A DNA stretch of 64,000 bases from an uncultured Gemmatimonadales bacterium. Lineage in GTDB: Bacteria; Gemmatimonadota; Gemmatimonadetes; Gemmatimonadales; GWC2-71-9. The translations under genes and the position numbers were made by a program. The first letter of the stretch is position 1; each line of letters opens with the position of its first letter. The stretch is from NCBI GenBank assembly GCA_963828735.1, contig CAWHFW010000005.1:2368001-2432000 (forward strand), in the 5' to 3' direction. Shown here one piece after another: positions 6,819 to 54,159 of the stretch. The notes under the pieces were generated by a model. It saw nothing but the letters and a program-made list of their open reading frames with translations. It was not told the DNA's origin and ran no database searches.

Positions 6819-7765
6819 GCATTCATCACGTGACGGCCATCGCGGGCGACCCGCAGCGCAACCTCGACTTCTACGCCGGCGTGCTCGGACTGCGCCTCGT
6901 GAAGCTGACAGTCAACTTCGACGACCCGGGCACATATCATCTGTACTTCGGCGATGAGATGGGCCGGCCGGGCTCCATCCTCACGTTCTTTCCCTGGCCG
7001 AACGGCCGCCGGGGCCGGCAGGGCACGGGGCAGGTCGGCTCCGTGTCGCTGGCCATCCCGCCGGCGTCGCTCGGCTTCTGGATCGAGCGGCTGGTGCGGC
7101 ACGGGGTGAAATTCGAGGGACCGTCCCGTCGGTTCGACGAGCAGGTGCTCGCCTTCGCCGACCCCGACGGGCTCCTCCTCGAGCTGATCGCCACGTCGAG
7201 GGTCGAACACGTGGCGCCATGGCTCGACGGGCCCGTCCCTGCGGAGCATGCGGTGCGCGGCCTGCATGGCGGGACGATCTGGGAGGACGGCGACCGTGGC
7301 ACGGCCGAGTTCCTGACGACGCGGATGGGCTTCCGTCCCGTCGGGCAGGAGGACAACCGGGTGCGGTTCGAGTCCGCGGCCGCGGGTGTCGGCACCGTCG
7401 TGGATCTGCGGCGAGTACCTGGTTTCTGGGCCGGTGGGACGGGCGTCGGAACCGTGCACCACATTGCCTTCCGTGCCCCGTCGGACGACGATCAGCTCGA
7501 ACGGCGCGCGCGCATCGAGGCAACCGGCCTGTCCGTCACCCCGGTCGTGGACCGGCAGTATTTCCGCTCGGTCTACTTCCGTGAGCCCGGCGGCGTCCTG
7601 TTCGAGATCGCGACCGACGCCCCGGGGTTCGCGATCGACGAGCCGGCGGCCGAGCTGGGAACGCATCTCATGCTTCCGCCGATGTACGAGCCGATGCGCG
7701 ATCGCATCGAACGGACCCTGCCCCCCGTACGGTTGCCGCACGCGACCGCGGAGGAGACGTCATGA
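6815..7765 (+). CDS. Ring-cleaving dioxygenase, VOC family (MhqO/MhqA-like)
   Basis: IHHVTAI, VNFDDPGTYHLY, VHHIAFR, DRQYFRSVYFREPGGVLFEIAT. ATGA overlap with the MarR gene. Confidence 0.93.
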   Translation: MSIHHVTAIAGDPQRNLDFYAGVLGLRLVKLTVNFDDPGTYHLYFGDEMGRPGSILTFFPWPNGRRGRQGTGQVGSVSLAIPPASLGFWIERLVRHGVKFEGPSRRFDEQVLAFADPDGLLLELIATSRVEHVAPWLDGPVPAEHAVRGLHGGTIWEDGDRGTAEFLTTRMGFRPVGQEDNRVRFESAAAGVGTVVDLRRVPGFWAGGTGVGTVHHIAFRAPSDDDQLERRARIEATGLSVTPVVDRQYFRSVYFREPGGVLFEIATDAPGFAIDEPAAELGTHLMLPPMYEPMRDRIERTLPPVRLPHATAEETS

Positions 7766-26057: not shown

Positions 26058-28661
26058 TCATTGCTTCGACTTGAAGGTCGCAGCGAACCGCGGATCTTCG
26101 CGTAGGTCCTTGAGTTCCCAGCTATCGTCCTGGGACAAGGTGCCCAGTTGCTGCGGGTTGCTGGCCAGCCAGATGGAGATCTGTTTGAATGCGCCGTCCT
26201 TGTCGCCCAGGATGTCGAGGGCGACGGCCTCGATCTGTGCGAGATCGCGACTCGGATCCATCGATCCGTCCGCACGCGACCGTTCCGCCACGCGGCGGGC
26301 GCTGTCGGCAAGCCCGGCGCGCGCGAGGGCCACCGCCATCCGCATCTGCCCCTGCAGCTTGTTGAACGGGCGCAGGCTGGTCGGGCTGAGGCTGACGTAC
26401 TTGTCGAACGCAGCCCACGCCGCCGGCACGTCGGGCTTGGCGGCCTTGAGGCCGAAATACCAGATCTGACACTCCGCGAAGCGATAGTCGTCCGGGAATC
26501 GCCGCTGGCCCTCCTCGCACCACTTCTTCGCCTCGTTCGCGTCGTCGAGCTGGTAGGACGTCGAGAACAGCCGCCAGACCGTGACATTCGCATTCGTCAG
26601 ATACGGATCCGCCGTGTAGGCCCGCATGGCGGCCAGCTTCGCTTCACCGAGCGCCGGCTTGTTGATGAGCAGGTGGCTCAGCATGGTCCACGCGGAGGCC
26701 TGCGCCGGATTCTGTTCGACCGATGCACGAAGGTCCTTTTCGGCATCGGCAAACAGCTTCACACTTTCCGCAGGCGAGCCGCCGAGGTTGTTGAGCCATT
26801 TCCAGTAACGGAGCGTGCCCCGGACCTCCAGGGCGTCCGGATCGTCCGCCTTGAGAGACAGAGCGTGCTCGGCATACTTGATTCCGGCATCGAGGCTTGC
26901 GGCGTCGGCGGTTTCGGTGATGCGCGACTGCCGGAACACGAGCCAGGCGCGAAGCACCGTCGGCGCGGGCCAGGCGGGGTCCTTCGACTCCGCGCGCACG
27001 AGCATCGAGTCGGTCTTCTGGAACATGCGGAAGGCGCCGGCCGTATCGCCGGTCGCCGCCAGAGCGCCCGCGTCCCGAGCGCCGGCCTCGGCCCGCTGGT
27101 AAATGGTCCAGGCCTCGACGTCCCGGGTGGTTGCCCGGGTCTCGCGCACCTGCACCTCCTTGCCCAACTGCCGCCGAAGGAACTCCGACACCTGCTTGCT
27201 CATGTCGTCCTGCAGGGCGAAGAGCTCGCCCCGGGGCCGCTCGAGCGTGGTGCTGCCCAGCTCGCGGCCGGTCGCGGCCTGCACGAGCGAGACGTTGAGG
27301 CGCAGGCGGTCGCCTGATTCGCTCACGTCGCCATGCACCAACGTGCCGACGTTGAGGTCCTGGGCGATCTTCACGAGTGGTGTCGTGCCCTGTTTGTAGG
27401 GTCGGACACCGTTGCCGGAGATCACCTGCAGTCCTTCGACTCCGCTCAGCTCGCGGATCAAGGCTTCCGTGAGACCGTCAGCCAGAAAGCCGAGGGAATC
27501 CGATCCGCCCCGCTGCTCGAAATACAGCACCGCGATGTGGGTCGGATCGAGCGCCTCTCCCGCTTCCTGCCCACCCGTCGCCGCCGCGCCGCCGCGCTGG
27601 GTGAATTTCCATACGCCGAAGCCCGCCGCCGCCAGCAGCACGAGTCCGCCCGCGATCATGGACCAGAGCTTGACCTTGCTCCGCTCGGGTGGCGCCGCCT
27701 CGACCTCCGCCGTCTTCCGCCGCGGACCCGCCCCGGTCGTCCGCGCCGGCTGCGCCCCGCTGGCCGCCCGGCGCGCTGCCGTGGATGCCCGCCGCTGCGC
27801 GGTTCTGGCCACCGCCGCCTCGGCCTCCGCCTCCTCCAGCCGCTCGGCGAACTCCTTCATCGTCTGGAACCGGTCGGCCGGCGTCTTCTCCAGCGCCTGC
27901 ATGACCGCGTCCTCGACCTCGTCCGGGATCGACGCGCGGACGACCTGCAGGCTCGGCACCACTTCCATCGAGTGCCGGGCCATGATGGCCATGGAGTTCG
28001 GGCCGGTGAACGGCGGCTGGCCGATGAGCACCTCGTACAGCACGCACCCCAGGCTGTAGATGTCGCTCCGGGCGTCCACGTGCTCGCTACCGAGAGACTG
28101 CTCCGGGCTCATGTAATGGGGAGTGCCGACCGCCATGCCGGTCTGCGTCAGCTTCTCGCCGCCGGCCGAGCTCACGGCGCGCGCGATCCCGAAGTCGGCG
28201 ACGAGGGCGTGGCCGCCGAGCAGCAGGATGTTCTCGGGCTTGATGTCGCGGTGGACGATCCCGCGCTCGTGGGCGTACTGCAGTGCCTCCGCCGCCTCCC
28301 GGACGATGGAGAGCGCGTCATGGATCGGGAGCTGCTGCTCCTTGTTCAGCCGGTCCCGGAGCGATTCGCCCTCGATGAAGGGCATGACGTAGTACAGCAG
28401 CCCGCCGGCCGCCTCGCCCGAGTCGTACAGACCGAGAATGTTCGGGTGCTGAAGATTGGCGGCGACGCGGATTTCACGGAGGAAGCGGTCGCCGCCAAGG
28501 GAAATGGAGAGCTCGGGCCGGAGAACCTTGATGGCGACCGTGCGCTCGATCTTGAGGTCCTTCGCGCGGTAGACCGTCGCCATGCCGCCCTCGCCGACCT
28601 GTTTCTCCAGGTCGTAGCGATCCCCGAGAGCGGAGCGCAGGCGTTCGAGCACGTCGGTCAC
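26058..28661 (-). CDS. Membrane Ser/Thr protein kinase with TolB-N-like and TPR-like C-terminal region
   Basis: GEGGMATVY, VAIK, HRDIKPEN, DFG, GTPHYMSPE, one TM helix, helical repeat tail. Confidence 0.93.
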   Translation of the reverse strand: MTDVLERLRSALGDRYDLEKQVGEGGMATVYRAKDLKIERTVAIKVLRPELSISLGGDRFLREIRVAANLQHPNILGLYDSGEAAGGLLYYVMPFIEGESLRDRLNKEQQLPIHDALSIVREAAEALQYAHERGIVHRDIKPENILLLGGHALVADFGIARAVSSAGGEKLTQTGMAVGTPHYMSPEQSLGSEHVDARSDIYSLGCVLYEVLIGQPPFTGPNSMAIMARHSMEVVPSLQVVRASIPDEVEDAVMQALEKTPADRFQTMKEFAERLEEAEAEAAVARTAQRRASTAARRAASGAQPARTTGAGPRRKTAEVEAAPPERSKVKLWSMIAGGLVLLAAAGFGVWKFTQRGGAAATGGQEAGEALDPTHIAVLYFEQRGGSDSLGFLADGLTEALIRELSGVEGLQVISGNGVRPYKQGTTPLVKIAQDLNVGTLVHGDVSESGDRLRLNVSLVQAATGRELGSTTLERPRGELFALQDDMSKQVSEFLRRQLGKEVQVRETRATTRDVEAWTIYQRAEAGARDAGALAATGDTAGAFRMFQKTDSMLVRAESKDPAWPAPTVLRAWLVFRQSRITETADAASLDAGIKYAEHALSLKADDPDALEVRGTLRYWKWLNNLGGSPAESVKLFADAEKDLRASVEQNPAQASAWTMLSHLLINKPALGEAKLAAMRAYTADPYLTNANVTVWRLFSTSYQLDDANEAKKWCEEGQRRFPDDYRFAECQIWYFGLKAAKPDVPAAWAAFDKYVSLSPTSLRPFNKLQGQMRMAVALARAGLADSARRVAERSRADGSMDPSRDLAQIEAVALDILGDKDGAFKQISIWLASNPQQLGTLSQDDSWELKDLREDPRFAATFKSKQ

Positions 28662-28787: not shown

Positions 28788-29618
28788 TCATCCGACCGTC
28801 ACCGCGGCCAGCGCGTCGCGCATCGCCGCAGCGGTCTGCCACCGCTCCTCCGGCGTCTTGGTCAGGGCACGACCGATGCCGGTGGCCAGATCGGCGGGGA
28901 TCTCGGGGCGAAGGGTCCGGAGGTCGGGAGCCGGCTGGGTGAGGTGCAGCTGCAGCACGACCGCCTCGTTGCGGTGCACGAACGGCGGCTGACCCGCGAG
29001 GCACTCGAAGAGCACGCAGGCCAGCGAGTACAGGTCGCTGCGGAGGTCGATCTCCTGGAGCGCGGTGATCTGCTCCGGACTCATGTAGGTCGACGTGCCG
29101 ACCGCAATGCCTGATCGGGTAAGGCGTTCGCTGCCGGAGGCCCAGACCGCCCGAGCGATCCCGAAATCGAGCAGGACGGCGCCATGGGGAGAGATGACCA
29201 CGTTCTCCGGCTTCACGTCCCGATGGATGATCCCGTGACCGTGAGCGTGCTCCAGCGCGTCGAGCAGGTTGTCCGCGATGCGGAGGGTGTCCGGCACCGA
29301 GAGTCGTGACCGCTGGGAGAGGAACTCGCGAAGGGTAGCGCCCTCCACATAGGTCATCACGTAGTAGACGAGCCAGTCCCGTTCGCCCGAGTCCAGTAGA
29401 TGCGCGATGTGCGGGTGGTTCAGCTGGGAGGCGAGCTTGATCTCGCGGAGGAATCGGTCGGCCGCGACGCTGACCAAAAGCTCCGGGTGCAGGATCTTGA
29501 GCGCGACCGGCTCGCCGCCGGGCTCGCGAGCCAGGAAGATACGGGCGTTCCCGCCCTTCCCGATCTCGCGCTCGACGTCGTACCGACCCTCGAACGCCTG
29601 ACGGACCAGCGCCAGCAT
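28788..29618 (-). CDS. Ser/Thr protein kinase (kinase domain only)
   Basis: GKGGNA, VALK, HRDVKPEN, DFG, YMSPE. Start approximate. Confidence 0.9.
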   Translation of the reverse strand: MLALVRQAFEGRYDVEREIGKGGNARIFLAREPGGEPVALKILHPELLVSVAADRFLREIKLASQLNHPHIAHLLDSGERDWLVYYVMTYVEGATLREFLSQRSRLSVPDTLRIADNLLDALEHAHGHGIIHRDVKPENVVISPHGAVLLDFGIARAVWASGSERLTRSGIAVGTSTYMSPEQITALQEIDLRSDLYSLACVLFECLAGQPPFVHRNEAVVLQLHLTQPAPDLRTLRPEIPADLATGIGRALTKTPEERWQTAAAMRDALAAVTVG

Positions 29619-29947
29619 GTCGCGTCGAATGACTGGGCCCTTGCGGAGGACCCCCCAATGGTTACAGCAACATCCCTTGCGCGCAAGTCGTGGCGGCACA
29701 GGGGCCTGGGAGGCCGCGAGCGATCGGGCGATCCGTCGTCGGGCAGTCGGAGGTGCGCCGTCGCCGTGAGCGGGCCTGGAGCGGTGAACCGATAGGGACG
29801 CGAACGATAGCATGACAGAGGGAGAGGCGGCGTGGCTGATCCGGCTGAAGTGCTGGTGGGTAACTGCTCACCGAGCCCGCCTGAGATTTCACGCTTGGCT
29901 CACTGGGAAGCTTGGCAGGGTGCTACCCGCTCCCACCGTTCGTCGCC

Positions 29948-31999
29948 CTAGAGCATAATGTCGGTCCTCACCCGCTGTCGCACGCCCCACCACAGCGCGC
30001 CCCACAGGTTGGACCGGCGGAGCGTCACGCTCGCTTCGCCCGTCATGCCGGGCCGCCAGCGCCCGCCCCCGCGCAGTCCGAGGCGAGCTTCGACTGCCCC
30101 GGAGCTCGGCGCCGAGCTCTGGGCGACACCCCCGACCTTTCCGCTGAGCGTGCTCCCGTCGGCGTGGAAGACAAGGCGCGCCTGCTGGCCCGCCCGGACC
30201 TGGGTGGCGCCGGCACCTGCCAGTGCGATGCGAACCTCCAGGGAATCCGGCTGGCCCAGCTCGAGCAACCGTTCACCGAGACTGACCCAGCGGCCGGTGA
30301 GACGTTCGGGGCGCGAGGTGACCACGATTCCCGGAACGAGCGCCCGAACGGTCAACGCCCGCTGTTCCGCGGTCATGCCGCCCAGCCGAGCGGCTTCGGT
30401 CGCCCGCTCGGCCTCGATTCGCGCCGTTTCGTCGGCCCGGCTCGCGGCGCGGGCCTGCGCCTCGCGGGCCTCCAGCGAGTCGACCAGGCGTGCGGATTCG
30501 AGCGTCGCATGCTCGAGCTCGAGGTCGCGTACCTGCACGAGCGGCATGCCGGCCTCGACGCGCGTCCCCTCGCGCACGTACACGCCGGCCACGATGCCGC
30601 TGTCGGGCGCCGTGAGTGGCACCGACAGGGCCGGCATGACCGAGAACGCACCGGTCACCGTGATGGGCCGCGGGATGATCGTCCCCGCCACGAGCACGAG
30701 CGCGCCCGCGATGAGCAATCGGTCGCGCAAACGCCGTCCTGCCACCCTGGCCCGAAACTCCCGCCACGCGGCGAGACCGGTCTGCGCCGCGCTCCGGATC
30801 GCCGAGCGCGACATCAGCCAGACACCGAGCACGAACAGCGCGCCGCCCGCCAAGCCCAGCGCGCGATCGAGCCAGCCGTACACGCTGCCGGCCACCAGCA
30901 GCATGATCGAGGTGATGTACCATGTCGCGAGCAGGCTATAAATGAGGAAGATGCGCTGCTCGCGCTCGTCGGCCGGCGGCATGGGCACGTCGAGCCGGAG
31001 CACGCGCGCCTTGACCAGCCAGCCGAGGTGCGCGAAGGCGCGCTGCCTGAGATTGGGCACCTCGAGCCAGTCGCTCAGCGCGAAGTAGCCGTCCAGCGGG
31101 ATGAGCGGATTCGCGTTCATGACTACCGTCGTCACCCCGCCGATCAGGACCGCGCTCAGCGCGATGTGCGAGATTAGCGTTCCCGGCGTCGCGGCCCACC
31201 ACACGATGGCGGCGAGGCTCGCCGCCACGACCTGAATCCACGATCCGGCCGCCGTGACCCAGAGCCGCGCCTTGAGCTCGGGGAAGGTCCAGGCATCGTT
31301 GACGTTGCAGAAAAATGCCGGCTCGAAGTAGAGCAGCATGGCGCCGATCTCGTGCACCTGGCCGCCGAAGTACTTGCACGTGTAGCCGTGTCCCAGCTCG
31401 TGGATCACGATGACCACGACGGCGGTGAGCCAGAGGGTCAGGAACTCGCTTGCCGAATAGCTGAAGGTGTAGAGGCTGTGGAACGCGGCAGTGAGCTCGG
31501 GCCACTTGAGCGCGGCAACGATGAAGTAGATCGCGAAGAGAAAGACCGACGCGATCACGAAGCCTCGGGTGAACATCCAGCGGAGGTACGGGATGGTGCG
31601 GTCCATGAACTTGTCGGGGTCGCCCATGGACCAGCGGATCCGGAAGATGTCCGTCTGCCCGAGGCCCCCGCTCAGCCGCTGCCGCCGCTGCGCGCGAAGC
31701 CGCTCCATCATGAGGACGGAGCGCTCGCCCACGGTGCGCTCGAGCAGGCCCATCGACTTGAGCTTGGCGGCGAACTTGTCCACCGCCGCCGCCGACACGC
31801 CGATTCCGCCCGCGACCAGGTCCGCCGCCACCTCGGCCGCGCTCCGCTCGCCGTCGAACTGCTGCAGCACGCGCACCTCGACCGGCCGGAAGCGGAAATA
31901 CTTGCGCGACTTCGGATCCTTGACGATGAAGCTCTGCTCGCCGCGGTAGGTCTGCTCGACGACGGTGAGGTCGGGCCGGAGCTTGGGCGCGCCGCTCAC
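29948..31999 (-). CDS. RRE/PqqD-like + site-2 protease (M50) + HlyD adaptor fusion (YydH-like peptide zinc metalloprotease)
   Basis: N-terminal ~85 aa (PKLRPDL...FIVKDP..RKYFRF...FDG.RS..EV...KLKSMGLL) fits an RRE fold. HELGH and NPLIPLDG are M50 motifs. TM helices, then a lipoyl/coiled-coil/barrel adaptor (VREG..V.AG.PL, WRPGMTG). GTG start overlaps the upstream TGA. Confidence 0.88.
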   Translation of the reverse strand: MSGAPKLRPDLTVVEQTYRGEQSFIVKDPKSRKYFRFRPVEVRVLQQFDGERSAAEVAADLVAGGIGVSAAAVDKFAAKLKSMGLLERTVGERSVLMMERLRAQRRQRLSGGLGQTDIFRIRWSMGDPDKFMDRTIPYLRWMFTRGFVIASVFLFAIYFIVAALKWPELTAAFHSLYTFSYSASEFLTLWLTAVVVIVIHELGHGYTCKYFGGQVHEIGAMLLYFEPAFFCNVNDAWTFPELKARLWVTAAGSWIQVVAASLAAIVWWAATPGTLISHIALSAVLIGGVTTVVMNANPLIPLDGYFALSDWLEVPNLRQRAFAHLGWLVKARVLRLDVPMPPADEREQRIFLIYSLLATWYITSIMLLVAGSVYGWLDRALGLAGGALFVLGVWLMSRSAIRSAAQTGLAAWREFRARVAGRRLRDRLLIAGALVLVAGTIIPRPITVTGAFSVMPALSVPLTAPDSGIVAGVYVREGTRVEAGMPLVQVRDLELEHATLESARLVDSLEAREAQARAASRADETARIEAERATEAARLGGMTAEQRALTVRALVPGIVVTSRPERLTGRWVSLGERLLELGQPDSLEVRIALAGAGATQVRAGQQARLVFHADGSTLSGKVGGVAQSSAPSSGAVEARLGLRGGGRWRPGMTGEASVTLRRSNLWGALWWGVRQRVRTDIML

Positions 32000-32991
32000 G
32001 GTGTGGTCCGCACCACCTTCTCGCCGGCGGCGATCCCGCTCACGACCTCGACCCGGTTGCCGTCGAGGTCCGCGCCGAGCGTGACCGCGCGGAGCGTGGT
32101 GCGGTTGTCGTCCCACACGAGCGCGTAGCCGTCCTTGGCCACCGCCGAGCGCGGGATGGCGACGACCCGCCGCCGCTCGGCGCCGAGCTGCACGGTGACG
32201 CTGCTGCCCGGCGTCAACGCCGAGCCGGGGGCGAGCTGCAGAATGACCTCGCGGGTGCCGCTCGCGGCGTCGATGACGGGCGACGTGCGAACGACCCGGG
32301 CCTCGGCGCTGGCGCCGCGGACGGCGAGCACCCGCCCCGTCGCGCCGACCCGGATCGCGGACGAGGCCGTCTCCGGCACGCGGACCGCGGCCAAAACGGG
32401 GGCGAGCGCCGTGACACGGAAGAGCGAATCACCCGCGTTGACCAGACGTTGCACGCGCGCCATCCGCGCGGTCACCACCCCGTCGAACGGCGCGACGATG
32501 CGGGTCAAGTCGTAGTCACGCTGCGCCTTCCTCACCGCGAGATCGGCCGCGCGGTGCTCGAACTCCACCTGCTCGGAATCGGCGCGAGTGACCACGCCGG
32601 CCGTGGCCAGCGCGCGTTGCCGCTCGACCCGCTGGGAGGCGTTGGCCGCCTGCTCGCGGGCCTGGTCGAGCGCGATCTCCTGGTCGGTACTCTCGAGCTG
32701 GGCGATGAGCTGACCGGCCGCCACGCGCGTGCCGATGTCCGCGAGGATGCGCTCGACCTGCCCCGAAGACCGCGCAACGACTGCGGCGTCGTGTTCCACA
32801 TAGAGTTGCGAGGAGAGGCTCAGCGGGCGGTCCACCGTCGTGCTTTCGGCTGTCTCGATGTTCCCTGGCGGAGGCGTCGTGATGGTGGCGGCGGCCGCGG
32901 TCTCGATCGTGCGTTTGCGGTCCGGCACGTTGTCACCGGCGCCGGCGCAGGCGGTAAGCAAGATCGCGAGCGGCAGGGCGGTGCGGGTCAC
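31996..32991 (-). CDS. RND-type periplasmic adaptor (membrane fusion) lipoprotein
   Basis: Lipobox LLTAC, IVAPFDGVV, SPVIDAASGT, VEVVSGIAAGEKVV. GTGA overlaps at both ends. Confidence 0.9.
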   Translation of the reverse strand: MTRTALPLAILLTACAGAGDNVPDRKRTIETAAAATITTPPPGNIETAESTTVDRPLSLSSQLYVEHDAAVVARSSGQVERILADIGTRVAAGQLIAQLESTDQEIALDQAREQAANASQRVERQRALATAGVVTRADSEQVEFEHRAADLAVRKAQRDYDLTRIVAPFDGVVTARMARVQRLVNAGDSLFRVTALAPVLAAVRVPETASSAIRVGATGRVLAVRGASAEARVVRTSPVIDAASGTREVILQLAPGSALTPGSSVTVQLGAERRRVVAIPRSAVAKDGYALVWDDNRTTLRAVTLGADLDGNRVEVVSGIAAGEKVVRTTP

Positions 32992-34916
32992 GACCAGATC
33001 CTCCACCAGAAGAGACGGCCCCACCGGAGCGGTCCGCGGAAGAGCCGCGTGGCTGCGGAGGCCGGGTCGGTGAGCACGCGGACGTAGGCCGCCATGCTCG
33101 GCTTGAGCGCGCCGTCGGGATTCGCCACGACGGCGCGGACGGGATAGCGCACCTCGCCCGCGGTGTCGGCCGGAATCGGGGCCACCGCCAGCACTCGGCC
33201 GACGAAGGTGCGCTGGGGGACCGCATCCACCCGCAGGTGCACATCCTGACCCGCGCGCACGCGATCGATGTCGCGCTGGGGCACCCCGAAGTCGAGCTCG
33301 AGCGAGTCGGTCCGCCCGATGGCAAGGAGCTCGTCGCCTTCCTCGAGGGACGCGCCCACGCGCTCGGTGACCCGCGGGGTCAGGACCACGCCGGGAACCG
33401 GCGCCCGCAGGGTCGTGAGCTCGACTTCTTCATCGAGCAGCGACACCTCGCGTCGCAGCGCGTCGCCGCGGAGCCGATGCAGCCGCTCCTCCGACGGGTC
33501 GCCACGGCTCGCGGCGAGCGACGCCAGTCGATCCGCGGAGGCGGCCTCGGCCGCGGTGGCTTCGCGGTCGGCGCGCAGCGTGGTGGCGCGGAGGTAGGCG
33601 ACCGGCGTCCCCCGGGACACGACGCTCCCTTCGGCCACCGGAATGCGCTCGACCACGCCCGCCACGAGCGCCCGGACCGGTGCGAATCCCATCGCGCGGA
33701 ACGCGGCGTCCTCGCCGGCTACCCGGAACGGCCAGCGAATGAGGAACAGCCCCGCGACCACGACCGCGGCGACGGCCGCGTAGATCTTGAGCCGGCGGTG
33801 TGGAATCGAGCGCAGCGCCTGCCGCTTGGCGGCCAGCGCACCCAGCGCGTCCACCATCGGGACCTGGTGGTAGAGCTGGGCATTCCGCAGCGCCACGGCC
33901 GTCTGGTTGGCCAGAATGGCGGCGACTTCGCGCTGCGTCGGCGTGGTGAAGTCGGCCGAGCCGGCCTCGAAGACCAGCACGCCGAGCACGCCCTCTTCGT
34001 CCTTGAGCGGGAGATAGAGGCCGCTCTCGACTCCATCGCTCTCCAGGTCCGGGCCGAAAATGGTGACGAACATCCGCTCGGCGTCCGAGCCGGGCGCCCC
34101 GCGCTCGACGAGGTAGAGCGGCTCGCCGCGCCCCGCGGCCCATTCGGCGCGGGCCACCAGGTCCTGCAGCTTGGGATCCTTCGGATCCACCGTCTCCTCG
34201 CCTGCCACCGCCCGGATGTCGCAGCGTCCCTTCTCGTACAGGGCGACGGCGGCGCGATCGAACGACAGCGCGCGCGAGGCCAGGTTGACCACCGATTGCA
34301 GCACGCGGTCGAGATCGAGTGTGGCCGTGATCTCGCGGCTGATGTCCAGCAGGACCGCGAGGTCACCGGCCCGCCGGCTCGCGGCGTGGAGCTGCGCGTT
34401 GCGCAGGGCCACGGCAGCCGTGGCCGCCAACCCCTCGAGAAAATCGCGATCGCGCTCGTCGAAGATGCCCTCGTCCGTGACCTTGCTGGTCACCTGGATC
34501 GCGCCCACGGTGTCACCGCCGGCCACCATCGCGGTGGCCATGACGTTGAAGCCAAGGGTTTCGGTCGAGGGGTCGGACCCCGGCTGAAATCGGGGGTCCT
34601 CCTGCGCACGGGTCGCCATCGTTGTCGTCTGCTGCTGGGCGGCCTCGCCGATGAGGCCGGTCCCCACGGGGACTTCGGCGCCGATCAGGCGCGAGCCTTG
34701 GCCGCCGACCGCGATGCGGCACCTCAGCACGTCGCCGTCGGCGATCCAGATGGATCCCCCTTCGGCGCCGAGGGCGGCGAGCACCCGGTCGAACACCTTC
34801 GGCAGCAGCTCATCGAAATCGAGGGACGCGCCCAGCTCCAGGCTGATGGACTGGAGCAGGCGCAAACGCTCGACTTCCTCGCGGAGTTCGTCGGTCGACG
34901 TTGCAGGTGCGCTCAT
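32988..34916 (-). CDS. GAF-GAF-TM-HlyD adaptor fusion protein
   Basis: Two GAF domains, each ending AVALRNAQL, then a TM helix and an HlyD module (LRAPVPGVV, LKPSM). Confidence 0.9.
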   Translation of the reverse strand: MSAPATSTDELREEVERLRLLQSISLELGASLDFDELLPKVFDRVLAALGAEGGSIWIADGDVLRCRIAVGGQGSRLIGAEVPVGTGLIGEAAQQQTTTMATRAQEDPRFQPGSDPSTETLGFNVMATAMVAGGDTVGAIQVTSKVTDEGIFDERDRDFLEGLAATAAVALRNAQLHAASRRAGDLAVLLDISREITATLDLDRVLQSVVNLASRALSFDRAAVALYEKGRCDIRAVAGEETVDPKDPKLQDLVARAEWAAGRGEPLYLVERGAPGSDAERMFVTIFGPDLESDGVESGLYLPLKDEEGVLGVLVFEAGSADFTTPTQREVAAILANQTAVALRNAQLYHQVPMVDALGALAAKRQALRSIPHRRLKIYAAVAAVVVAGLFLIRWPFRVAGEDAAFRAMGFAPVRALVAGVVERIPVAEGSVVSRGTPVAYLRATTLRADREATAAEAASADRLASLAASRGDPSEERLHRLRGDALRREVSLLDEEVELTTLRAPVPGVVLTPRVTERVGASLEEGDELLAIGRTDSLELDFGVPQRDIDRVRAGQDVHLRVDAVPQRTFVGRVLAVAPIPADTAGEVRYPVRAVVANPDGALKPSMAAYVRVLTDPASAATRLFRGPLRWGRLFWWRIWS

Positions 34917-34946: not shown

Positions 34947-34982
34947 GGCTCCGGCTTCCCGCAGTCGGGGGAAGCCGGAGCC
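34947..34982. terminator. Strong stem-loop between the peptide genes and the export genes
   Basis: GGCTCCGGCTTCCC-N8-GGGAAGCCGGAGCC, a perfect 14-bp stem with no clear U-tract. Confidence 0.6.
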
Positions 34983-35025
34983 GAGGCGCCCGCGGGAACC
35001 GCGGGCGGACGATCTACGCCGCGAG

Positions 35026-35154
35026 CTAGATCTTCATCGGCGCGATCTTCTCCTCGAGCTCTTCGACGCCAAGCTCGACGTCCTTGGCCGGGACCGGCTT
35101 CTTCGGCTGCTGTTCGGGGGTCTTGGTCCGGGACTGCTCGTCGTGCTTGATCAT
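35026..35154 (-). CDS. Small precursor-like peptide B (42 aa)
   Basis: Hand-translated: MIKHDEQSRTKTPEQQPKKPVPAKDVELGVEELEEKIAPMKI. Shares the ELxVEELExxIAP motif with peptides A and C. Confidence 0.8.
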   Translation of the reverse strand: MIKHDEQSRTKTPEQQPKKPVPAKDVELGVEELEEKIAPMKI

Positions 35155-35201
35155 GATAGCTCTCGTTTCGGAGAAGGTCGAGGGTGGAACGTCGTTTCGG
35201 G

Positions 35202-35360
35202 TTACTTGTGGCCCGGGATGATCTTGGCCGGCGCGATGCGAGCCTCGAGCTCCTCGACCGAAAGCTCCACGGCCTCGGCATCCTTCCCAGTCGCCTTGCG
35301 AATGCTGTCCTTCTGCTCGGTGGTCAGATCGATCCGGAACGAGTCCTTGGCGCTTGACAT
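35202..35360 (-). CDS. Small precursor-like peptide A (52 aa)
   Basis: Hand-translated: MSSAKDSFRIDLTTEQKDSIRKATGKDAEAVELSVEELEARIAPAKIIPGHK. AGGAG RBS. Paralog at 39784..39939. Confidence 0.9.
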   Translation of the reverse strand: MSSAKDSFRIDLTTEQKDSIRKATGKDAEAVELSVEELEARIAPAKIIPGHK

Positions 35361-35415
35361 CGTGAGCTCCTGGTGTGGGTCTGCGATTTGGGGGCGGCCA
35401 GACTGACTGGGAACG

Positions 35416-35469
35416 AACCTACCAGGCTGCCGTGAAAAGATCGTGATTGCCTACTTGCCCTTCCGTCAA
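35416..35469 (-). promoter_or_regulatory. Putative SARP-activated promoter of the peptide/export operon
   Basis: Minus strand: TTGACGG-N15-ATCACGA-N4-TTCACGG-N8-TAGGTT. Same geometry as 39981..40034. Confidence 0.75.
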
Positions 35470-35508: not shown

Positions 35509-37758
35509 GTGTCCGCCTTCACGCTGCGACTCTTCGGTGCCCCAACCCTCGCGACCGCCGAGGGGAGAACGGCCGTGCCCGCCTTGGGGGCCAAGCCGCT
35601 CGCCCTGTTGGCGTACCTGGTGCTGGAGCCCCGTCAGCACACCCGAGAGGCGCTGGCAGGGCTCCTGTGGGGCGAGTCGCCCGAGGCCGAGGCGCGTGCC
35701 TCCCTTCGGCAGGCACTCAAGCATCTTCGGGACGTGTTCGGTGACCAGCTCCATGCCGAGCGGGCGCTCGTGGAGTTGGCCGCACCGCTCGCCTGTGATG
35801 CCCTGGAGTTCCGGGCAGCGGCGGAGCGCGACCCCGTCCATGCGGTCGGCTTCGACGTTCCCCGGTTCCTGGAAGGGTTTTCGGTGCGCCGAGCGCCGCA
35901 GTTCGAGGAGTGGGTTTCCACGGCGCGCGGGGGCCTGCTCCGGCTTTACCATCAGGCGCTCGATCGCGCCGCCCGGGAATCGATGCGCCAATGCCGGTGG
36001 CGCGAGGCGGTGGAGCTCGCCGACCGGTGGCTCGCGAGCGAGCCAGTGTGCGACGAAGCGGCCCATCTCGCCGTCGAGGCACGCTACCTCTCGGGCAACC
36101 GCGCCGGGGCGATGGCGCGGTTCGCGGAGTACCGGGATCTCCTGGCCCGTGAGGCGGGGTGCGAACCCGGCCGGGCCCTCGAAGCCCTGGTGCGGCGGGT
36201 CGAGGCGGATCGGACGACGCACGACGCGGCGCCGATCACCGACGAGTGGTACACCCGCGCTCCGACCTTCGACGCGAGCCTAGTGGGGCGCGACGCCCAG
36301 TGGAAGGCGCTCACCGCGGCGTGGAAAGGCGTACAGCGCGGACAGGGCCGCATCGTCCTGATCGACGGCGAATCCGGCGTCGGCAAGTCCCGCCTGGCCG
36401 ACGAGTTCCTGCGGTGGGTGGTGGCCGAAGGCGGGACGACTTTGCATGGGCGGAGCTACGACCGCCGCGCGGGCATTCCCTACGAGCCCGTCGTCGAAGG
36501 GCTCCGCTGTGCCCTCGGCGCCCCCGGACTGGGTGGCACCTCGCCCGAATGGCTGGTCGAGGTGGCGCGACTTCTTCCGGAGATTCGCGAGCGCTTCCCG
36601 GGCCTGCCCGCTGGGGGGGAAGCCGATGCGACGGAAGGGTGGCGGCTCTTCGAGGGCGTGGCGCAGCTCCTCAGCACCATCGCCGCCGAGCGGCCGGTGG
36701 CGATCGTCATCGACGACCTGCAATGGTGCGACGAGGACAGCTGCAACCTCATCCGGTTTCTGACCCGCCGTCTCGAGCGCTCCGCCGTCCTGTGGCTCGG
36801 CGTTTTGACCCTGGGTGAGGTCGAGCGTGACGCGCCCGCGTCCCGCCTCTGCCGAGCGCTCCGCGCCAAGGGTTCCGCCGACGCCCTCACGGTGGGGCCG
36901 CTCGGCGAAGAGGACATCTGGCAGCTGGTGCGCGAGATGGGGCACGTGAGCGTGCCCACTGGGGGGCGCCGACTGGCCGCTCGTCTCCATCGGATCACGG
37001 GCGGCAATCCATTCTACGTGATCGAGCTGCTCAAGACGATGTTCGCTCAAGGCCTACTCTCCATGGACGGGGATACCGGCGAATGGACCGTGGTGCCCTC
37101 CGAGGTCGGGGCGGGCCGGGAGGTGCCGGTCTCGCAGACGGTGCAGGACGTGATCGCCGAGCGGGTCGATCGGCTGTCCACCGACCTGCGTGACGTCCTC
37201 ATCACGATCGCGGTGAGCGGCGGCGGGTGCCGCCCGGACGTCCTTTCCCACGTGCACGGGATCTCCCGGCTTCGCGCCGCGTCCGCCGGCGACGCGCTGG
37301 TGGATCGCTATCTCGTCACCGAAGAAGGCGGCTGGTACCGGTGCATTCACCCGGTCATCGCCCACATGGTACGGGACGGCCTCACGGCCTCGCGCCGGCA
37401 GGAGGTGCACCGCGCGATCGCGTTGGCCTTCGAGCTGGTGATGGAGGGAGACGAGCTGGTCGCGGTCGCTGGGGAGATCGCGCGCCACGCGGAGCGGGGA
37501 GGCGAGCGGGATCTGGCGTATCGCCACGCGCGACGCGCGGCCGAAAGCGCGGTGACGCGCTACGCCTACGCCGAGGCACTCTCGTGGCTCGACCTCGCGG
37601 CGTCCTCCGCCCGCGGCTCCGTGCAGGTGCAGGCGGTGGATCAGCTGACGGCCGAAGTCATGGAACGCGCCGGTTGGAGCGAGGCCCCGCGCCGGGCGAC
37701 GGCGCCCGTCACGCGCGAGATCGTGAGCGAGGATTTCGACCTTCGTGTGCGCGGCTAA
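35509..37758 (+). CDS. SARP/AfsR-like regulator (wHTH + BTAD + AAA ATPase + helical region)
   Basis: LRLFG...ALLAYL...REALAGLLW...SLRQAL, FLEGF...FEEWV (BTAD), Walker A GESGVGKS, IDDLQW, TGGNPF. Confidence 0.92.
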   Translation: MSAFTLRLFGAPTLATAEGRTAVPALGAKPLALLAYLVLEPRQHTREALAGLLWGESPEAEARASLRQALKHLRDVFGDQLHAERALVELAAPLACDALEFRAAAERDPVHAVGFDVPRFLEGFSVRRAPQFEEWVSTARGGLLRLYHQALDRAARESMRQCRWREAVELADRWLASEPVCDEAAHLAVEARYLSGNRAGAMARFAEYRDLLAREAGCEPGRALEALVRRVEADRTTHDAAPITDEWYTRAPTFDASLVGRDAQWKALTAAWKGVQRGQGRIVLIDGESGVGKSRLADEFLRWVVAEGGTTLHGRSYDRRAGIPYEPVVEGLRCALGAPGLGGTSPEWLVEVARLLPEIRERFPGLPAGGEADATEGWRLFEGVAQLLSTIAAERPVAIVIDDLQWCDEDSCNLIRFLTRRLERSAVLWLGVLTLGEVERDAPASRLCRALRAKGSADALTVGPLGEEDIWQLVREMGHVSVPTGGRRLAARLHRITGGNPFYVIELLKTMFAQGLLSMDGDTGEWTVVPSEVGAGREVPVSQTVQDVIAERVDRLSTDLRDVLITIAVSGGGCRPDVLSHVHGISRLRAASAGDALVDRYLVTEEGGWYRCIHPVIAHMVRDGLTASRRQEVHRAIALAFELVMEGDELVAVAGEIARHAERGGERDLAYRHARRAAESAVTRYAYAEALSWLDLAASSARGSVQVQAVDQLTAEVMERAGWSEAPRRATAPVTREIVSEDFDLRVRG

Positions 37759-37777
37759 CTGGAGACCACGAGGCATC

Positions 37778-38692
37778 ATGTTACGCACCGCCCTGCTCGT
37801 CTCTGCCACCGTGCTGCTCGGCGCGGCCTGCGACGACCTTCGTCTTCCCGCGCTCCCCGCCAAGGCGGGAACCGACACCGCGGTGGCCACCGCCTCGCCA
37901 TCTTCACCGAAGCCGAACCGTCCTGTCCGTCGCGCCACCAACGTCGACCCGGCGCTCGCCGCCCAGCGGCTCGACCTCGTGCGCCGTGAGCTTCGCCGCC
38001 TGGTGGTCTCGGAAGAGACGTACTACGCGGAGAACGGGACCTATACCGAGGACCTCGCCCGGATCTCATTCGCGCCACGAAACGACGCCGACGTTCGATT
38101 CCTTTGGCTCGCGCGGGGCGGATGGGCGGCCAGCGGCACCCATCCCGATGTCCCCGGCCGCGATTGTGTGGTGTACGTGGGGCGGGCGCACGGCGCGCCC
38201 ACGACGCTGCACGACGTGCGTCAGGGACGTGAAGGCGCGCCCGTGTGCGACGGACCGCCGCCGCGCCCGGTCCCATCGCCGGCGCAGCCCCAGACGGCGG
38301 CGGGATCTCCCTCGAGCCCGGCCGTCGCCTCGGCGCCGACGGAGTCTCCGCCGACCACGCCCGACACGGGCAGCGCGCTCGACATGGTGGATCCTGCGGT
38401 TCAGATGCGCGTGGACCTTAGGAATCTCGTGCTATCCCAGGACACCTATTTCGCCAACCAGGGCATCTATTCCCGGCGGACCGAGCCGTTCGCGCTCCAG
38501 TACCTCTGGCACCGCGGCGTCACGATCTCGATTCTGACCGCGACGGATGCGGGGTGGTCCGCCAGGGCGACCCATGCGTCGCGGCCCGGGAAAAGCTGCG
38601 TCATCTGGCTCGGAACGGTGACACAGCGGCCGGCGACCGAGGCGCAGAGGCGCACGCCCGAGCAGCCTGGGGCGCCCGTCTGCGACAGCTGA
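37778..38692 (+). CDS. Lipoprotein with two tandem pilin-like domains and a Pro-rich linker
   Basis: Lipobox LGAAC. Internal repeat LRRLVVSEETYY..GWAA..TH..CVV..GAPVCD / LRNLVLSQDTYF..GWSA..TH..CVI..GAPVCD. Confidence 0.7.
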   Translation: MLRTALLVSATVLLGAACDDLRLPALPAKAGTDTAVATASPSSPKPNRPVRRATNVDPALAAQRLDLVRRELRRLVVSEETYYAENGTYTEDLARISFAPRNDADVRFLWLARGGWAASGTHPDVPGRDCVVYVGRAHGAPTTLHDVRQGREGAPVCDGPPPRPVPSPAQPQTAAGSPSSPAVASAPTESPPTTPDTGSALDMVDPAVQMRVDLRNLVLSQDTYFANQGIYSRRTEPFALQYLWHRGVTISILTATDAGWSARATHASRPGKSCVIWLGTVTQRPATEAQRRTPEQPGAPVCDS

Positions 38693-39783: not shown

Positions 39784-39939
39784 TTACTTGTTGCCCTTGA
39801 TGGGGAAGGGCTTCGCCGGGGCGATACGCTCTTCGAGCTCTTCGACGTTCAACTCGAGGGCCCGGGCGTCCTTCCCGGTGGCGGCCTTGACCTGAGCCTT
39901 CTGCTCTTCGGTAAGCTCCAGGCGGATGTGCTCGGACAT
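39784..39939 (-). CDS. Small precursor-like peptide C (51 aa)
   Basis: Hand-translated: MSEHIRLELTEEQKAQVKAATGKDARALELNVEELEERIAPAKPFPIKGNK. AGGAG RBS. Paralog of peptide A. Confidence 0.9.
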   Translation of the reverse strand: MSEHIRLELTEEQKAQVKAATGKDARALELNVEELEERIAPAKPFPIKGNK

Positions 39940-39980: not shown

Positions 39981-40034
39981 AACCTAGGCCACCGTCGTGA
40001 ATATCCGGTGAATTTGGGCGCGGGCGACCGTGAA
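39981..40034 (-). promoter_or_regulatory. Putative SARP-activated promoter of peptide C
   Basis: Minus strand: TTCACGG-N15-TTCACCG-N4-TTCACGA-N8-TAGGTT. Confidence 0.78.
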
Positions 40035-40651: not shown

Positions 40652-40674
40652 CTCTGTCCGCTTGACCCTAGCTT

Positions 40675-40747
40675 TGGGGTGTAGCTCAATCGGCAGAGCG
40701 CCCGGCTGTTAACCGGGAGGTTGCTGGTTCGACCCCAGCCGCCCCAG
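40675..40747 (+). tRNA. tRNA-Asn (GTT)
   Basis: Acceptor stem TGGGGTG/CGCCCCA, D arm GCTC..GAGC, anticodon arm CCCGG-CTGTTAA-CCGGG, T arm GCTGG-TTCGACC-CCAGC, discriminator G. CCA is not encoded. Confidence 0.96.
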
Positions 40748-40751
40748 TCGA

Positions 40752-48916: not shown

Positions 48917-51070
48917 TCACTCGAACAGCACTACCCCCGTCAGCCGCACCTCGATCGTATCCCACCGTGGCGTTGGCGCCGGAAGCCGCGACAGGATTGC
49001 GGGCATCCGGTCGGCCGACGCGTCGGCCATCCGCTCCACCAGCATCGCCTCACCGGCAGTATGTCCTCCACCGACGAAGGCCAACGCCTGCTCCAACTGC
49101 CCCAGCGTGCGGCGGTCGCGGGCTCGCGCGGCTTTGCCGACAGCCTCGGCGAGTCTGGCTGCGAGTCGCCGGGCGGATGGCGCCGGTTCCCCCGCCGCCC
49201 AGCGACGACCGCCCGCGACCACCAATCGCGCGCGGATCGGCGTCACGAGGCGATCGAGGGCGCTCCGAATGGAATCGGGCGATGCGGGTGCGCGGTTCTC
49301 CGAGCGGCCGGCTTCGTGCATGCGGCCCTCGATCACCGCGCCGTCCTCGGTCCAGCTGCCATCCTGATCGAGCCAGCCAATGACCGCCGCGAGCGGCTGG
49401 CGCCCGCCGGGGTGATGTGGCAGAAGGGTGAACCCGGCGAGCACGCCACGACACGAGGAGTCCCGAATGAGAGCGACTCCGCTCACGGCTGGGCCGTCGC
49501 CAAGCCGGTCGGCGAGCGCCGTGCGCCACCGCCACAGACGCACGCCCCGCGCGCCGAGTCCGGCATGGGCGGGGAGCCTCGCCTTGCGCTCGAGCCGCTG
49601 ACGAAGCCCGAGTGCTGCCTCGAGGGAGGGCGGCGTGCCGAAGCGCACGACGTCAACCCACCGGTGAGCCGAGCCCAGGCGCACCGCTCGGCCCTCTCGC
49701 TGCTCGAGCCGCATCGGAGTCCACGGCAGGTCGTAGTGAACGACGCGCTCGGCACGACGCAGGTCCAGGCCTTCGGCCGCGACATCCGTGGCCACGAGGA
49801 TCCGGGGCCTCGTCAGCGACACAGGAGCGCGTTCCCCGTCATCCTGAAACAACTGCATGACCAGAGATCGCGGCGCGGAGCAGGGGCCCACCCCCGCCCG
49901 GTCGCCGGTACACCAGGCGACCGGAACGCCGAGCCGGTCCCGCAGGTGGCGCACCGTCTCGCGACGCGTCGTGAAGACGAGCGTGGGACGTCCGTCGGAG
50001 AGAAGCGTCCGCAATCGATCGAGCTTGGCGTCGGGTGCGTCGGCTGGAGTGCCGGTCTCGACCTGCACCGCATCGATCGTGTCGAGGTCCTCGAGCGCGA
50101 CCTCCAGGTCGCCGTCTCCGTCGGCCACGAGCTCCCACAGCACAAGTTGGTCGTCGAGGTCTCCGGCAAAGGCCCGCAGCTCGGCGCGGCTCAACGCGCG
50201 ACCGGCTCGGCGCGCGTCGGCGGCGTGGTGCAGCAGGCCGCGGTAACGACGGAGTGCCCCCGCGAGCGCCGCCGGGCTCGAGGTCGCGGCCCGGAGCAGC
50301 ACGCCGCGGATCAGGGCCGCGGTCGGCGCGCGACGCGAAAGTCGGAGCCGGGCCAGGCTCGCGAGGATGCGTCGCCCGGACTCCTCCTCGGGCGGGGTCG
50401 GGTCGCTCGGGCGCTGCGTTCGGCCTGGACGCGGGCCGGCCTCGACGGTCTCTTCGAGGACCAATCGCCCGAGCGCGGCGATGCCGGACCCTCCTGTCAG
50501 CGCGGCCCGAAGAGAGACGACGCCGTCGGCGAGCAGCGCGTCGTCGCGGACGCCGAGCACGAGTTGGTGCGCGAGGTCGCCGAGGCGGTTGACGATTGGC
50601 GTGGCGCTGAGCAGCAGGACGCGACGGCCCAGCAGCCACGGTGCGACATGGTGGTACCGGCGGGAATGCGGATTCCGGAAGTGGTGACTCTCGTCGATGA
50701 TGACGAGCCCGGACGCGGCGGGGGGAAGGCGTCCTCGGCTCGCCTGCTGGTGGGTGCCGATCTCGACCGGCACGCCAACCGCCTGGGCCAGGCTCGACCA
50801 CTGGTGCGCCAGGGTGGCGGGGACGAGGCATGCGCACGGGGCGCGCAGTGCGGCGGCCACCGCGAGCGCGATGTAGCTCTTGCCGCTGCCGACGGGATCG
50901 GCGAGCAGCGCGCCGCCGAACCGCTCGAGCGCAGCCTGCACGCGCCGAAAGCTTCGCACCTGGCCCGGCAACAACCAGGGCGGGGCGGCCCTCGGGCTTT
51001 CCGGCGGCAGCGCAGCCCGCGCGATCGCGCGTGCCACCTCCAAGCCAGACGCGAGTGGCCCGCACCCCAA
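48917..51070 (-). CDS. SF2 (SNF2-like) helicase
   Basis: LADPVGSGKS, DESHH, LSATP, ATDVAAEGLDL, HYDLPW.P..LEQREGR..R. Start uncertain. Confidence 0.88.
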   Translation of the reverse strand: MGCGPLASGLEVARAIARAALPPESPRAAPPWLLPGQVRSFRRVQAALERFGGALLADPVGSGKSYIALAVAAALRAPCACLVPATLAHQWSSLAQAVGVPVEIGTHQQASRGRLPPAASGLVIIDESHHFRNPHSRRYHHVAPWLLGRRVLLLSATPIVNRLGDLAHQLVLGVRDDALLADGVVSLRAALTGGSGIAALGRLVLEETVEAGPRPGRTQRPSDPTPPEEESGRRILASLARLRLSRRAPTAALIRGVLLRAATSSPAALAGALRRYRGLLHHAADARRAGRALSRAELRAFAGDLDDQLVLWELVADGDGDLEVALEDLDTIDAVQVETGTPADAPDAKLDRLRTLLSDGRPTLVFTTRRETVRHLRDRLGVPVAWCTGDRAGVGPCSAPRSLVMQLFQDDGERAPVSLTRPRILVATDVAAEGLDLRRAERVVHYDLPWTPMRLEQREGRAVRLGSAHRWVDVVRFGTPPSLEAALGLRQRLERKARLPAHAGLGARGVRLWRWRTALADRLGDGPAVSGVALIRDSSCRGVLAGFTLLPHHPGGRQPLAAVIGWLDQDGSWTEDGAVIEGRMHEAGRSENRAPASPDSIRSALDRLVTPIRARLVVAGGRRWAAGEPAPSARRLAARLAEAVGKAARARDRRTLGQLEQALAFVGGGHTAGEAMLVERMADASADRMPAILSRLPAPTPRWDTIEVRLTGVVLFE

Positions 51071-51107
51071 GCCCGTTCGCAGCGGATCCGTGACTGCGGT
51101 GAGTGAC

Positions 51108-54100: not shown

Positions 54101-54159
54101 GAGTCGACCCGGGCCAGGAGCGCGCCGAGGGTGGGGATCGTCCGGGAAGCCGTAGGCAC
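51108..54159 (-). pseudogene. N6-adenine DNA methyltransferase (Eco57I/type IIG-like) with a +1 frameshift before the target-recognition domain
   Basis: FLNGGLF, LGRVFE..G.YYTP, DPAAGSGAF, GNPPW. The frame switches near 51903-51930 into ...GPWIL...GVKTGAN...LNTCY (track ORF 51108..51869). Confidence 0.8.

Follow-up and report, generated by a model that had tools for sequence, protein, structure and literature searches.

Leader-tail peptides with a predicted SARP-type promoter beside a predicted RRE-site-2 protease exporter in Gemmatimonadota

Two short genes on the minus strand of an uncultured Gemmatimonadales genome, peptides A and B, are real, conserved and apparently transcribed members of a precursor family made from known parts, the combination of which we did not find in print. 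They lie between the genes of a predicted protease-exporter and a divergent regulator of the SARP type. Whether A, B and a third copy, C, are leader-tail signal peptides activated by the SARP, matured by the protease and exported is in our estimate an even bet. A sequence-only reading of the same DNA, a stretch of 64,000 nucleotides here called the window, had claimed two tandem ORFs at this site; both were found, on the minus strand and with the ends AKIIPGHK (A) and MKI (B) that it had quoted. Its description of two unannotated peptides is right in that neither carries a family name, but public gene sets do call the genes as hypothetical proteins and the third copy makes them more than two. 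The ORFs and their division into leader and tail had thus been recognized correctly, while the SARP-type promoter, the protease-exporter and peptide C had been missed.

A peptide family with conserved leaders and variable tails

The precursor genes considered here are the following:

35202..35360, minus strand: peptide A, 52 aa, a 44-aa leader and an 8-aa cationic tail
35026..35154, minus strand: peptide B, 42 aa, of which 39 form a conserved leader of its own and 3 the tail
39784..39939, minus strand: peptide C, third copy, 51 aa, an A-type leader and a 10-aa tail
G000:C5:2539841-2540026, plus strand: fourth precursor, with an NHNE-containing tail (locus L031)

A six-frame search of the 4.78-Mb genome with the strict motif E.LE.[RK]I[AS]P found it four times, in each case close to where a short ORF ends; three triplet shuffles of the genome gave 1, 0 and 0 occurrences. 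Peptide C has the whole leader in common with A, and an orthologous C copy is present in locus L040. The fourth precursor stands behind a short TPR-like reading frame and lacks the SARP-box repeat pair described below; two of its homologues (P0256 and P0236) consist of multi-cassette motif-core-NHNE repeats and in another (P0232) a peptide of this type is joined to a TPR protein; the NHNE precursors are possibly a separate TPR-receptor peptide system. Two near-identical 51-aa genes elsewhere (G000:C5:1047741 and 1051078, plus strand) encode the N-domain together with a degenerate form of the motif, and similar repeated non-coding DNA follows each of them.

Peptide A has 213 homologues at E<=0.01, mostly from Gemmatimonadales where a taxon was named, and its profile gathers 731 clusters at 50% identity; for B, 36 homologues were found. 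Scans of the peptides against Pfam and NCBIfam gave no family above its cut-off (the scores of Amm_Lyn_leader were weak), and a search of the ESM Atlas returned unnamed clusters only. Weak scores to DUF1192 in 31 of 35 members (best E 0.001; A reaches 14.4 bits against a cut-off of 25.5) would suit small proteins of an ordinary kind, or ORFs that arose by chance, with no relation to the exporter, a reading that is scarcely credible in view of the synteny, the co-occurrence, the contrast between leader and tail, the dedicated promoter and the homology of the motif to protease substrates laid out below. The leader of A comprises a predicted beta-alpha-beta N-domain and a recognition motif that ends in Pro44; the structural model (mean pLDDT 70) has a strand, a helix and a strand, after which a second helix covers the motif and the tail is disordered, and a fold search with it was uninformative (best Z 2.1 over 48,161 chains).

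Each peptide has a conserved whole leader ending in E-L-E-x-R/K-I-A-P, followed by a variable tail. The sequence-only reading had held that only a 14-aa motif is conserved, and this is so between A and B; across genomes, however, either leader is kept in full. The 44-aa leader of A is nearly constant among the 120 matches listed, and the sequence changes after the Pro: over 119 of these homologues, mean identity is 86% for the last 30 leader residues and 25% in the tail. The leader of B, which differs from that of A, shows 79-93% identity in its 36 homologues. Tails as conserved as the motif would have suggested ordinary small proteins; instead, pooled dN/dS over six close loci, a rough estimate with non-independent pairs and unaligned tails, is 0.18 for the A leader, 0.06 for its motif and 1.29 for the first six tail codons, and 0.05 for the last 28 leader codons of B compared to 0.34 for its tail. 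The reading of a leader with a variable tail is thus borne out. The N-domain of A is also under purifying selection, with a dN/dS of 0.23.

Among 96 peptides from related loci, 76 have long tails, of which 74 are distinct, and 74 peptides of this long-tailed group have an intact N-domain pattern. The other 20 have tails of five residues or fewer, and 14 of them lack the N-domain pattern, so that B-like genes form a recurring second class. The earlier suggestion that B might be a leader-only decoy is not favored, given that 35 of the 36 B homologues keep a tail of 3-6 residues (8 in the remaining one), which mostly varies around a hydrophobic-K/R-x-hydrophobic pattern.

Across the family, tails measure 3-13 aa; the last residue is Lys in A and C and Ile in B. 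That the tails are free of Cys, Ser, Thr, Trp and Tyr applies to A and B, but 91 of the 120 A homologues listed have Ser, Thr, Trp or Tyr there; Cys occurs in none of the 120, and the absence of classical modification chemistry that had been proposed on these grounds is supported. Net charge lies between +1 and +4 in 68 of the 76 long tails, which are rich in Lys, Arg and Pro, as one would expect of strain-specific antagonists comparable to microcins or bacteriocins that share the same promoter, cut and export. Six of the 76 are acidic, however; the conserved locus holds no immunity gene or modifying enzyme, and most tails have 3-11 residues, which is short for membrane killing. Such antagonists are therefore unlikely to our minds, even though SARPs activate antibiotic genes (as described in parts of PMC10936776) and a daptide bacteriocin is known (from passages of PMC12749797).

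The predicted protease-exporter locus

Downstream of the peptides, three genes encode HlyD-type proteins:

32988..34916, minus strand: GAF-GAF-TM-HlyD adaptor, 642 aa
31996..33024, minus strand: RND/MFP-type periplasmic adaptor (coordinates of the longest ORF, which may begin upstream of the true start)
29948..31999, minus strand: fusion of an RRE, an M50 (site-2) zinc protease and HlyD, 683 aa, the predicted leader peptidase and exporter core

In the fusion protein, the HExxH and NPxxxxDG motifs are intact, and it scores 203 bits against NF041824, the model of the daptide protease MpaP, which is below the equivalog cut-off of 300. Its first 85 residues were modelled as three strands and three helices, and the top three structural matches of this N-terminal domain are RREs of lasso peptides (Foldseek probability 0.91-0.97, E 0.07-0.2); these matches rest on a single-sequence model with a mean pLDDT of 43 that is poor outside the RRE.

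The block of peptide and exporter recurs in 19 of 20 more loci, and a peptide directly precedes the GAF-HlyD gene in 18 of 19 related loci. Of 251 genomes of the phylum, 49 are matched by the peptide profile (34 of them at E<=1e-15); the protease was found in 35 and the SARP orthologue in 30. The RRE-M50 protease is found in 32 of the 34 genomes with a strong peptide match, a peptide match in 34 of the 35 with the protease, and both together in 29 of the 30 with the SARP orthologue, though these counts come from kin and are not independent. In one genome (G107), the SARP is present and neither peptide nor protease was found with the queries used. Two of the 15 genomes with weaker profile matches have short-leader peptides beside the protease and 13 have no protease match; loci from 11 of these 13 encode other small proteins that share mainly the N-domain. 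Among the latter, L189, L190 and L192-L195 encode proteins of ca. 70 aa that share only the beta-alpha-beta N-domain, have a conserved Trp-containing C-terminal part and come from genomes without the protease; no common neighbor was seen for the N-domain-only proteins of L187-L197.

The locus contains no ABC pump, SecA paralogue or TolC, and neither TolC nor a second SecA was found in 108 peptide-bearing loci with the query used. Elsewhere in the genome, there are two distant matches to TolC and a single SecA locus far from the peptides, which we take to be the housekeeping copy. The window also holds a tRNA-Gly (7300-7385, plus strand), a tRNA-Asn (40674-40749, plus strand) and, at 48917-54159 on the minus strand, genes for an Eco57I-type methylase and, after it, an SNF2-related helicase, which are likely a restriction or defense pair.

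A predicted SARP-type promoter

The regulator gene and the predicted promoters are located as follows:

35509..37758, plus strand: AfsR-like SARP regulator, 749 aa, with wHTH, BTAD and Walker-A ATPase, divergent from the peptides
35431..35469, minus strand: predicted SARP box of A, with an 11-bp period between direct repeats at 35442-35447 and 35431-35436 and a third copy at 35464-35469
35416..35421, minus strand: predicted -10 element of A, with a predicted transcription start at ca. 35409
39981..40034, minus strand: promoter of C, repeats at 40029-40034, 40007-40012 and 39996-40001, -10 element at 39981-39986

For the regulator, BTAD and AAA_16 score above cut-off, the Walker A motif is present, and the only PDB matches are AfsR (8hvr) and EmbR (2fez); Pfam detected no C-terminal TPR domain. 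An unannotated gene with two repeated pilin-like C-terminal domains, noted by eye and without a Pfam match, lies at 37745-38692 (plus strand) and is syntenic behind the SARP gene in seven related loci.

The repeat core TTCACG is strongly enriched upstream of peptide genes. A pair of repeats with a period of ca. 11 bp precedes 52 of 80 peptide genes, compared with 0.02 in shuffles and none of 67 control regions upstream of short-leader peptides (35 loci); many, though not all, of the 28 upstream regions that lack the strict pair belong to second genes of a tandem. Ten bases past the second core, there is a hexamer whose matrix columns have A at 48 of the 50 sites and T at all 50, as in a -10 element. 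In the promoter of A, the predicted start puts the cores at -38..-33 and -27..-22, i.e., in the geometry of an afs box, for which passages of PMC10936776 describe a poor -35 element (TTCAGC) at -38..-33 and two 11-bp repeats over the -35 region and spacer of the afsS promoter. With a matrix built without the sites of the window, the promoters of A and C are the best and second-best matches in the genome. Further matches lie at G000:C7:41063 (plus strand), upstream of a gene for a secreted 163-aa protein that adjoins two BTAD paralogues, at C5:1704339 (plus strand), upstream of a 289-aa ORF, and at C5:1105310 (minus strand), ahead of the gene for a Ser/Thr kinase.

The repeats accompany the peptide genes even where these are orphan copies at a distance from the SARP gene, and in a locus with no peptide between SARP and GAF-HlyD (L219) the strict pair is absent from this gap and present upstream of the displaced peptide. 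Peptide B has no repeat pair of its own and is thus likely co-transcribed with A. A sigma-70 scan did not find the promoter of A, as is expected of an activator-dependent promoter; a 9-of-12 site that it reported inside the A-B spacer was not accepted. Since the genome encodes seven BTAD paralogues, the adjacent SARP is proposed as the binder on the grounds of synteny.

A small gene with an afs-box-like promoter and an AfsR-like neighbor is also the arrangement of afsS, and the peptides might accordingly be intracellular AfsS-like co-regulators whose N-terminal part binds the SARP, with the protease as on/off switch and the tail as a by-product or processing tag. AfsS does bind AfsR according to portions of PMC10832544, and the N-domain is not only under purifying selection but missing from the short-leader class without SARP box and present in motif-less small proteins of genomes without the protease. 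However, a purely intracellular role leaves the three HlyD domains, the diversity of tails at constant chemistry and the B leader without N-domain unexplained; we consider it improbable as the sole explanation, while as a second role of the released leader it is compatible with exported signal peptides, the reading that we prefer.

Transcripts

Seventeen soil RNA runs carry a small share of this region, of which we examined eight. RNA contigs over A and/or B are present in seven of these eight, several without any differences, and the run X1 covers other parts of the locus and not the peptides. Six contigs from three studies end at 35383-35398, i.e., 11-26 nt downstream of the predicted start, and none passes the predicted -10 element; one contig each in runs X6 and X7 spans both A and B. 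Behind B, the following structure was predicted:

34947..35007, minus strand: a pair of GC-rich stem-loops that lies behind B and before the exporter genes (z -4.4, 0 of 200 shuffles)

The X7 contig ends at 34969 inside this region, and the stem-loops are likely the 3' end or a stabilizer of a short peptide transcript. Coming from RNA runs as contigs that show neither strand nor level, these data are a weak hint at a transcript of ca. 450 nt. At 35026-35080, runs X6 and X7 contain a close strain in which A is unchanged and the tail of B has four residues, MKAF, as in L033.

Kinases and a candidate receptor

Two kinase genes follow the exporter genes:

28788..29813, minus strand: PK1, soluble Hanks-type Ser/Thr kinase (longest ORF; the true start is likely ca. 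65 codons in)
26058..28661, minus strand: PK2, candidate receptor, a membrane Ser/Thr kinase that has a single TM helix (332-350) and TPRs in its outer domain

No part of the locus is as divergent as the outer domain of PK2 (41-69% compared to 72-95% for its kinase domain), for which a sequence search gave no useful PDB match; outer domains evolve fast in any case. A PK1-like gene is present in 13 of 19 further loci and missing from the other six, and PK2 follows PK1 in only six of the 19. This and the ca. 100 kinases of the genome leave PK2 no more than a candidate receptor. Of 17 orphan peptide loci, 8 also hold a kinase, where a random site in this genome would give a share of 0.19 (binomial 0.007, which is overstated given related loci and a baseline from one genome). 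In locus L201 (3964-7556), four tandem peptides with aromatic-Gly tails are followed by genes for an outer-membrane protein of the TonB-dependent type and for a kinase-TPR protein, an arrangement that hints at uptake and sensing.

With two intact Hanks kinases in the operon and so many homologous tails that contain Ser, Thr, Tyr or Trp, the tails might instead be substrates of these kinases and the product a phosphorylated RiPP. The tails of A, B and C are devoid of Ser, Thr and Tyr, however, and the kinases are missing from several loci, which makes this reading very improbable compared to that of unmodified exported signals.

The motif as a possible wider export tag

The sequence-only reading had likened the motif to the LEPRxLL motif of Planctomycetes and called this a resemblance only. 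The likeness goes further: of the seven fixed positions of the Tuwongella motif LxLExLExRxxP (given in passages of PMC8567305), A fits six and B five. On annotated plasmids, homologues of the protease adjoin giant proteins, and at six of seven proteobacterial plasmid loci these carry an N-terminal LEPR motif in the same register. Formal membership in the Planctomycete extracellular family, for which a profile comparison had been suggested, fails nonetheless, with no matches to NF012209 at E<=10 and six matches to PF07595 under its cut-off, none of them on the peptides. With the leaders of Streptomyces daptides, a family whose leader motif is ELExMEAP, the motif of A shares 9 of 14 residues in register, while positions -4 and -3 differ; daptides are cut after the motif Pro, as parts of PMC10036551 report. 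The peptides thus fail the formal tests of both the daptide and the LEPRxLL families.

A pattern scan of GTDB genome DNA found the motif at at least 79 loci. Among the 79 listed, the exact motif EELEERIAP heads proteins of ca. 1,050-1,450 aa at two, and seven are apparent chance matches or lack a motif ORF. Residues L(-12), S(-11), E(-8) and L(-7) of the motif presumably also recall double-glycine leaders. At least 20 GTDB loci from several phyla encode short-leader peptides with Gly/Asn/Pro-rich tails of 24-70 residues, adjacent to an RRE-M50 gene. Precursors of this kind (L064, L067, L072, L076, L078, L080, L082, L084, L092, L093, L095, L112, L123, L124, L130, L138, L139 and L200) are near-identical across phyla, directly precede a lone RRE-M50-HlyD gene and form a separate class without SARP box. 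Among the GTDB matches listed, the motif also stands on tails of eight to ten residues in Zixibacteria and Ignavibacteria; these precursors (L074, L106, L119, L120, L127, L131 and L140) have very short leaders and Gly-rich tails, and no M50 match was seen in the DNA retrieved for their loci.

In a quick tree of 48 protease domains, the clades follow the class of cargo rather than taxonomy, and Gemmatimonadota entries with Gly/Asn/Pro peptides sit in that class apart from their kin; this was a quick search only, the daptide entries are long branches, six rows were left out (five duplicate sequences and one with a stop) and partial matches were excluded. On a reading that we hold to be possible rather than probable, one LExR-type leader with its protease would be an ancient export signal common to daptides, small peptides and giant LEPRxLL adhesins.

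Discussion

Taken step by step, the divergent AfsR-like SARP would very probably bind the 11-bp repeats and likely activate the peptide promoters. The RRE of the fusion protein likely binds the acidic motif, and homology to daptide MpaP gives us good confidence that the M50 protease would cut after the motif Pro. The tail would then probably leave the cytoplasm, likely through RRE-M50-HlyD and the two additional HlyD adaptors, perhaps together with a TolC encoded elsewhere. Outside, the short unmodified tail would probably be a strain-specific signal, and it may equally well act or not act back on the SARP, via PK2 and PK1 or after re-import. Peptide B would give a second, shorter signal of three to six residues.

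The signal role is the weakest step of this mechanism. We propose it because the tails are diverse at constant chemistry without modifying or immunity genes in the locus, and because the outer domain of PK2 evolves fast and kinases accompany many orphan loci; it is weakened by the absence of PK2 from most distant loci and by AfsR being hardly activated by phosphorylation in vitro (as portions of PMC10936776 state). That the locus represents a new architecture of Gram-negative peptide quorum sensing, in which an RRE-guided site-2 protease and an ABC-less HlyD conduit are joined to a Hanks receptor kinase acting on a SARP, is a tentative idea that we hold to be possible rather than probable.

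The cassette of M50, HlyD and GAF genes has been without an assigned cargo since 2015, and the LEPRxLL motif is a suspected export signal without a known reader. Both questions become testable in E. coli, by mass spectrometry and a reporter assay, thanks to a 52-residue substrate, a single protease gene and a defined promoter. Should the tails prove to be signals, Gemmatimonadota, a phylum of soil bacteria that is mostly uncultured, would communicate by peptides, and would do so by way of a Ser/Thr kinase and a SARP instead of a two-component system; some of the many kinases of this genome would also gain a function. If the export signal is shared, peptides of 50 residues would be the simplest handle on the whole secretion route.

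Comparison with known systems

Our literature search returned no paper that describes this system of peptides, exporter and SARP, though RRE-protease families or loci of this kind may be listed in supplements, for instance those of PMC10036551 and PMC4452313; passages of PMC12749797 and bioRxiv 10.64898/2026.03.19.712371 do not describe it either.

Peptide quorum sensing of Gram-positive bacteria, e.g., agr, ComCDE or RRNPP/Phr, uses a small precursor, a strain-variable mature peptide, a membrane protease and positive feedback. The first three are shared, with the tail as the predicted mature peptide, and the fourth may be, but the conserved locus encodes no histidine kinase or RRNPP protein, and the candidates for their place are a Hanks kinase and the SARP.

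The AfsK-AfsR-AfsS system of Streptomyces, as covered by parts of PMC10936776 and PMC10832544, resembles the locus in that a SARP-ATPase regulator has a Ser/Thr kinase and a small peptide gene for neighbors, and in that two 11-bp repeats overlie the -35 position of the peptide promoter. Here, however, the small gene encodes a leader-tail precursor tied to a protease-exporter and the host is no actinomycete; AfsR, moreover, has a C-terminal TPR sensor domain, while the SARP of this locus is shorter with 749 aa and Pfam detected no such domain in it. Phosphorylation in vitro barely activates AfsR (same portions of PMC10936776).

Daptides (Ren et al. 2023, PMC10036551, in part; NF041824) likewise have an M50 protease with an N-terminal RRE, short precursors of which several stand in tandem, and a leader motif with E(-8), L(-7) and P(-1) in the same register. 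Their RRE-fused intramembrane site-2 protease has a homologue here with its catalytic motifs, at an NF041824 score under the cut-off. Their invariant C-terminal Thr, which is converted to Dmp, has no counterpart in A, B or C, and their tails are long and hydrophobic where those of this Gram-negative host are short and cationic. Daptides are modified by the enzymes DapB, DapC, DapD and DapM; a tblastn search of the genome with one Streptomyces set gave no match to MpaB, MpaC or MpaM and, for MpaD, only aminotransferases of 25-33% identity outside the operon; the locus also differs in having no ABC transporter and in the HlyD domain of its protease.

Similar in its export genes is the SecA_DEAD or type-I-secretion-related locus of Kamneva, Poudel and Ward (2015, PMC4452313), in which GAF-HlyD, HlyD and M50-HlyD genes without an ABC pump are in print as a conserved cassette of unknown role; the section on this locus names no cargo or leader. 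That locus has a secondary SecA_DEAD, while there is no second SecA or TolC in ours. The LEPRxLL or Planc_extracel giants (NF012209, PF07595) share the register of the motif at the N-terminus of a neighboring cargo, which comprises thousands of residues there compared to 3-13 in this family and 3-10 after the motif in A, B and C. To both, the locus described here adds a predicted SARP promoter and kinases.
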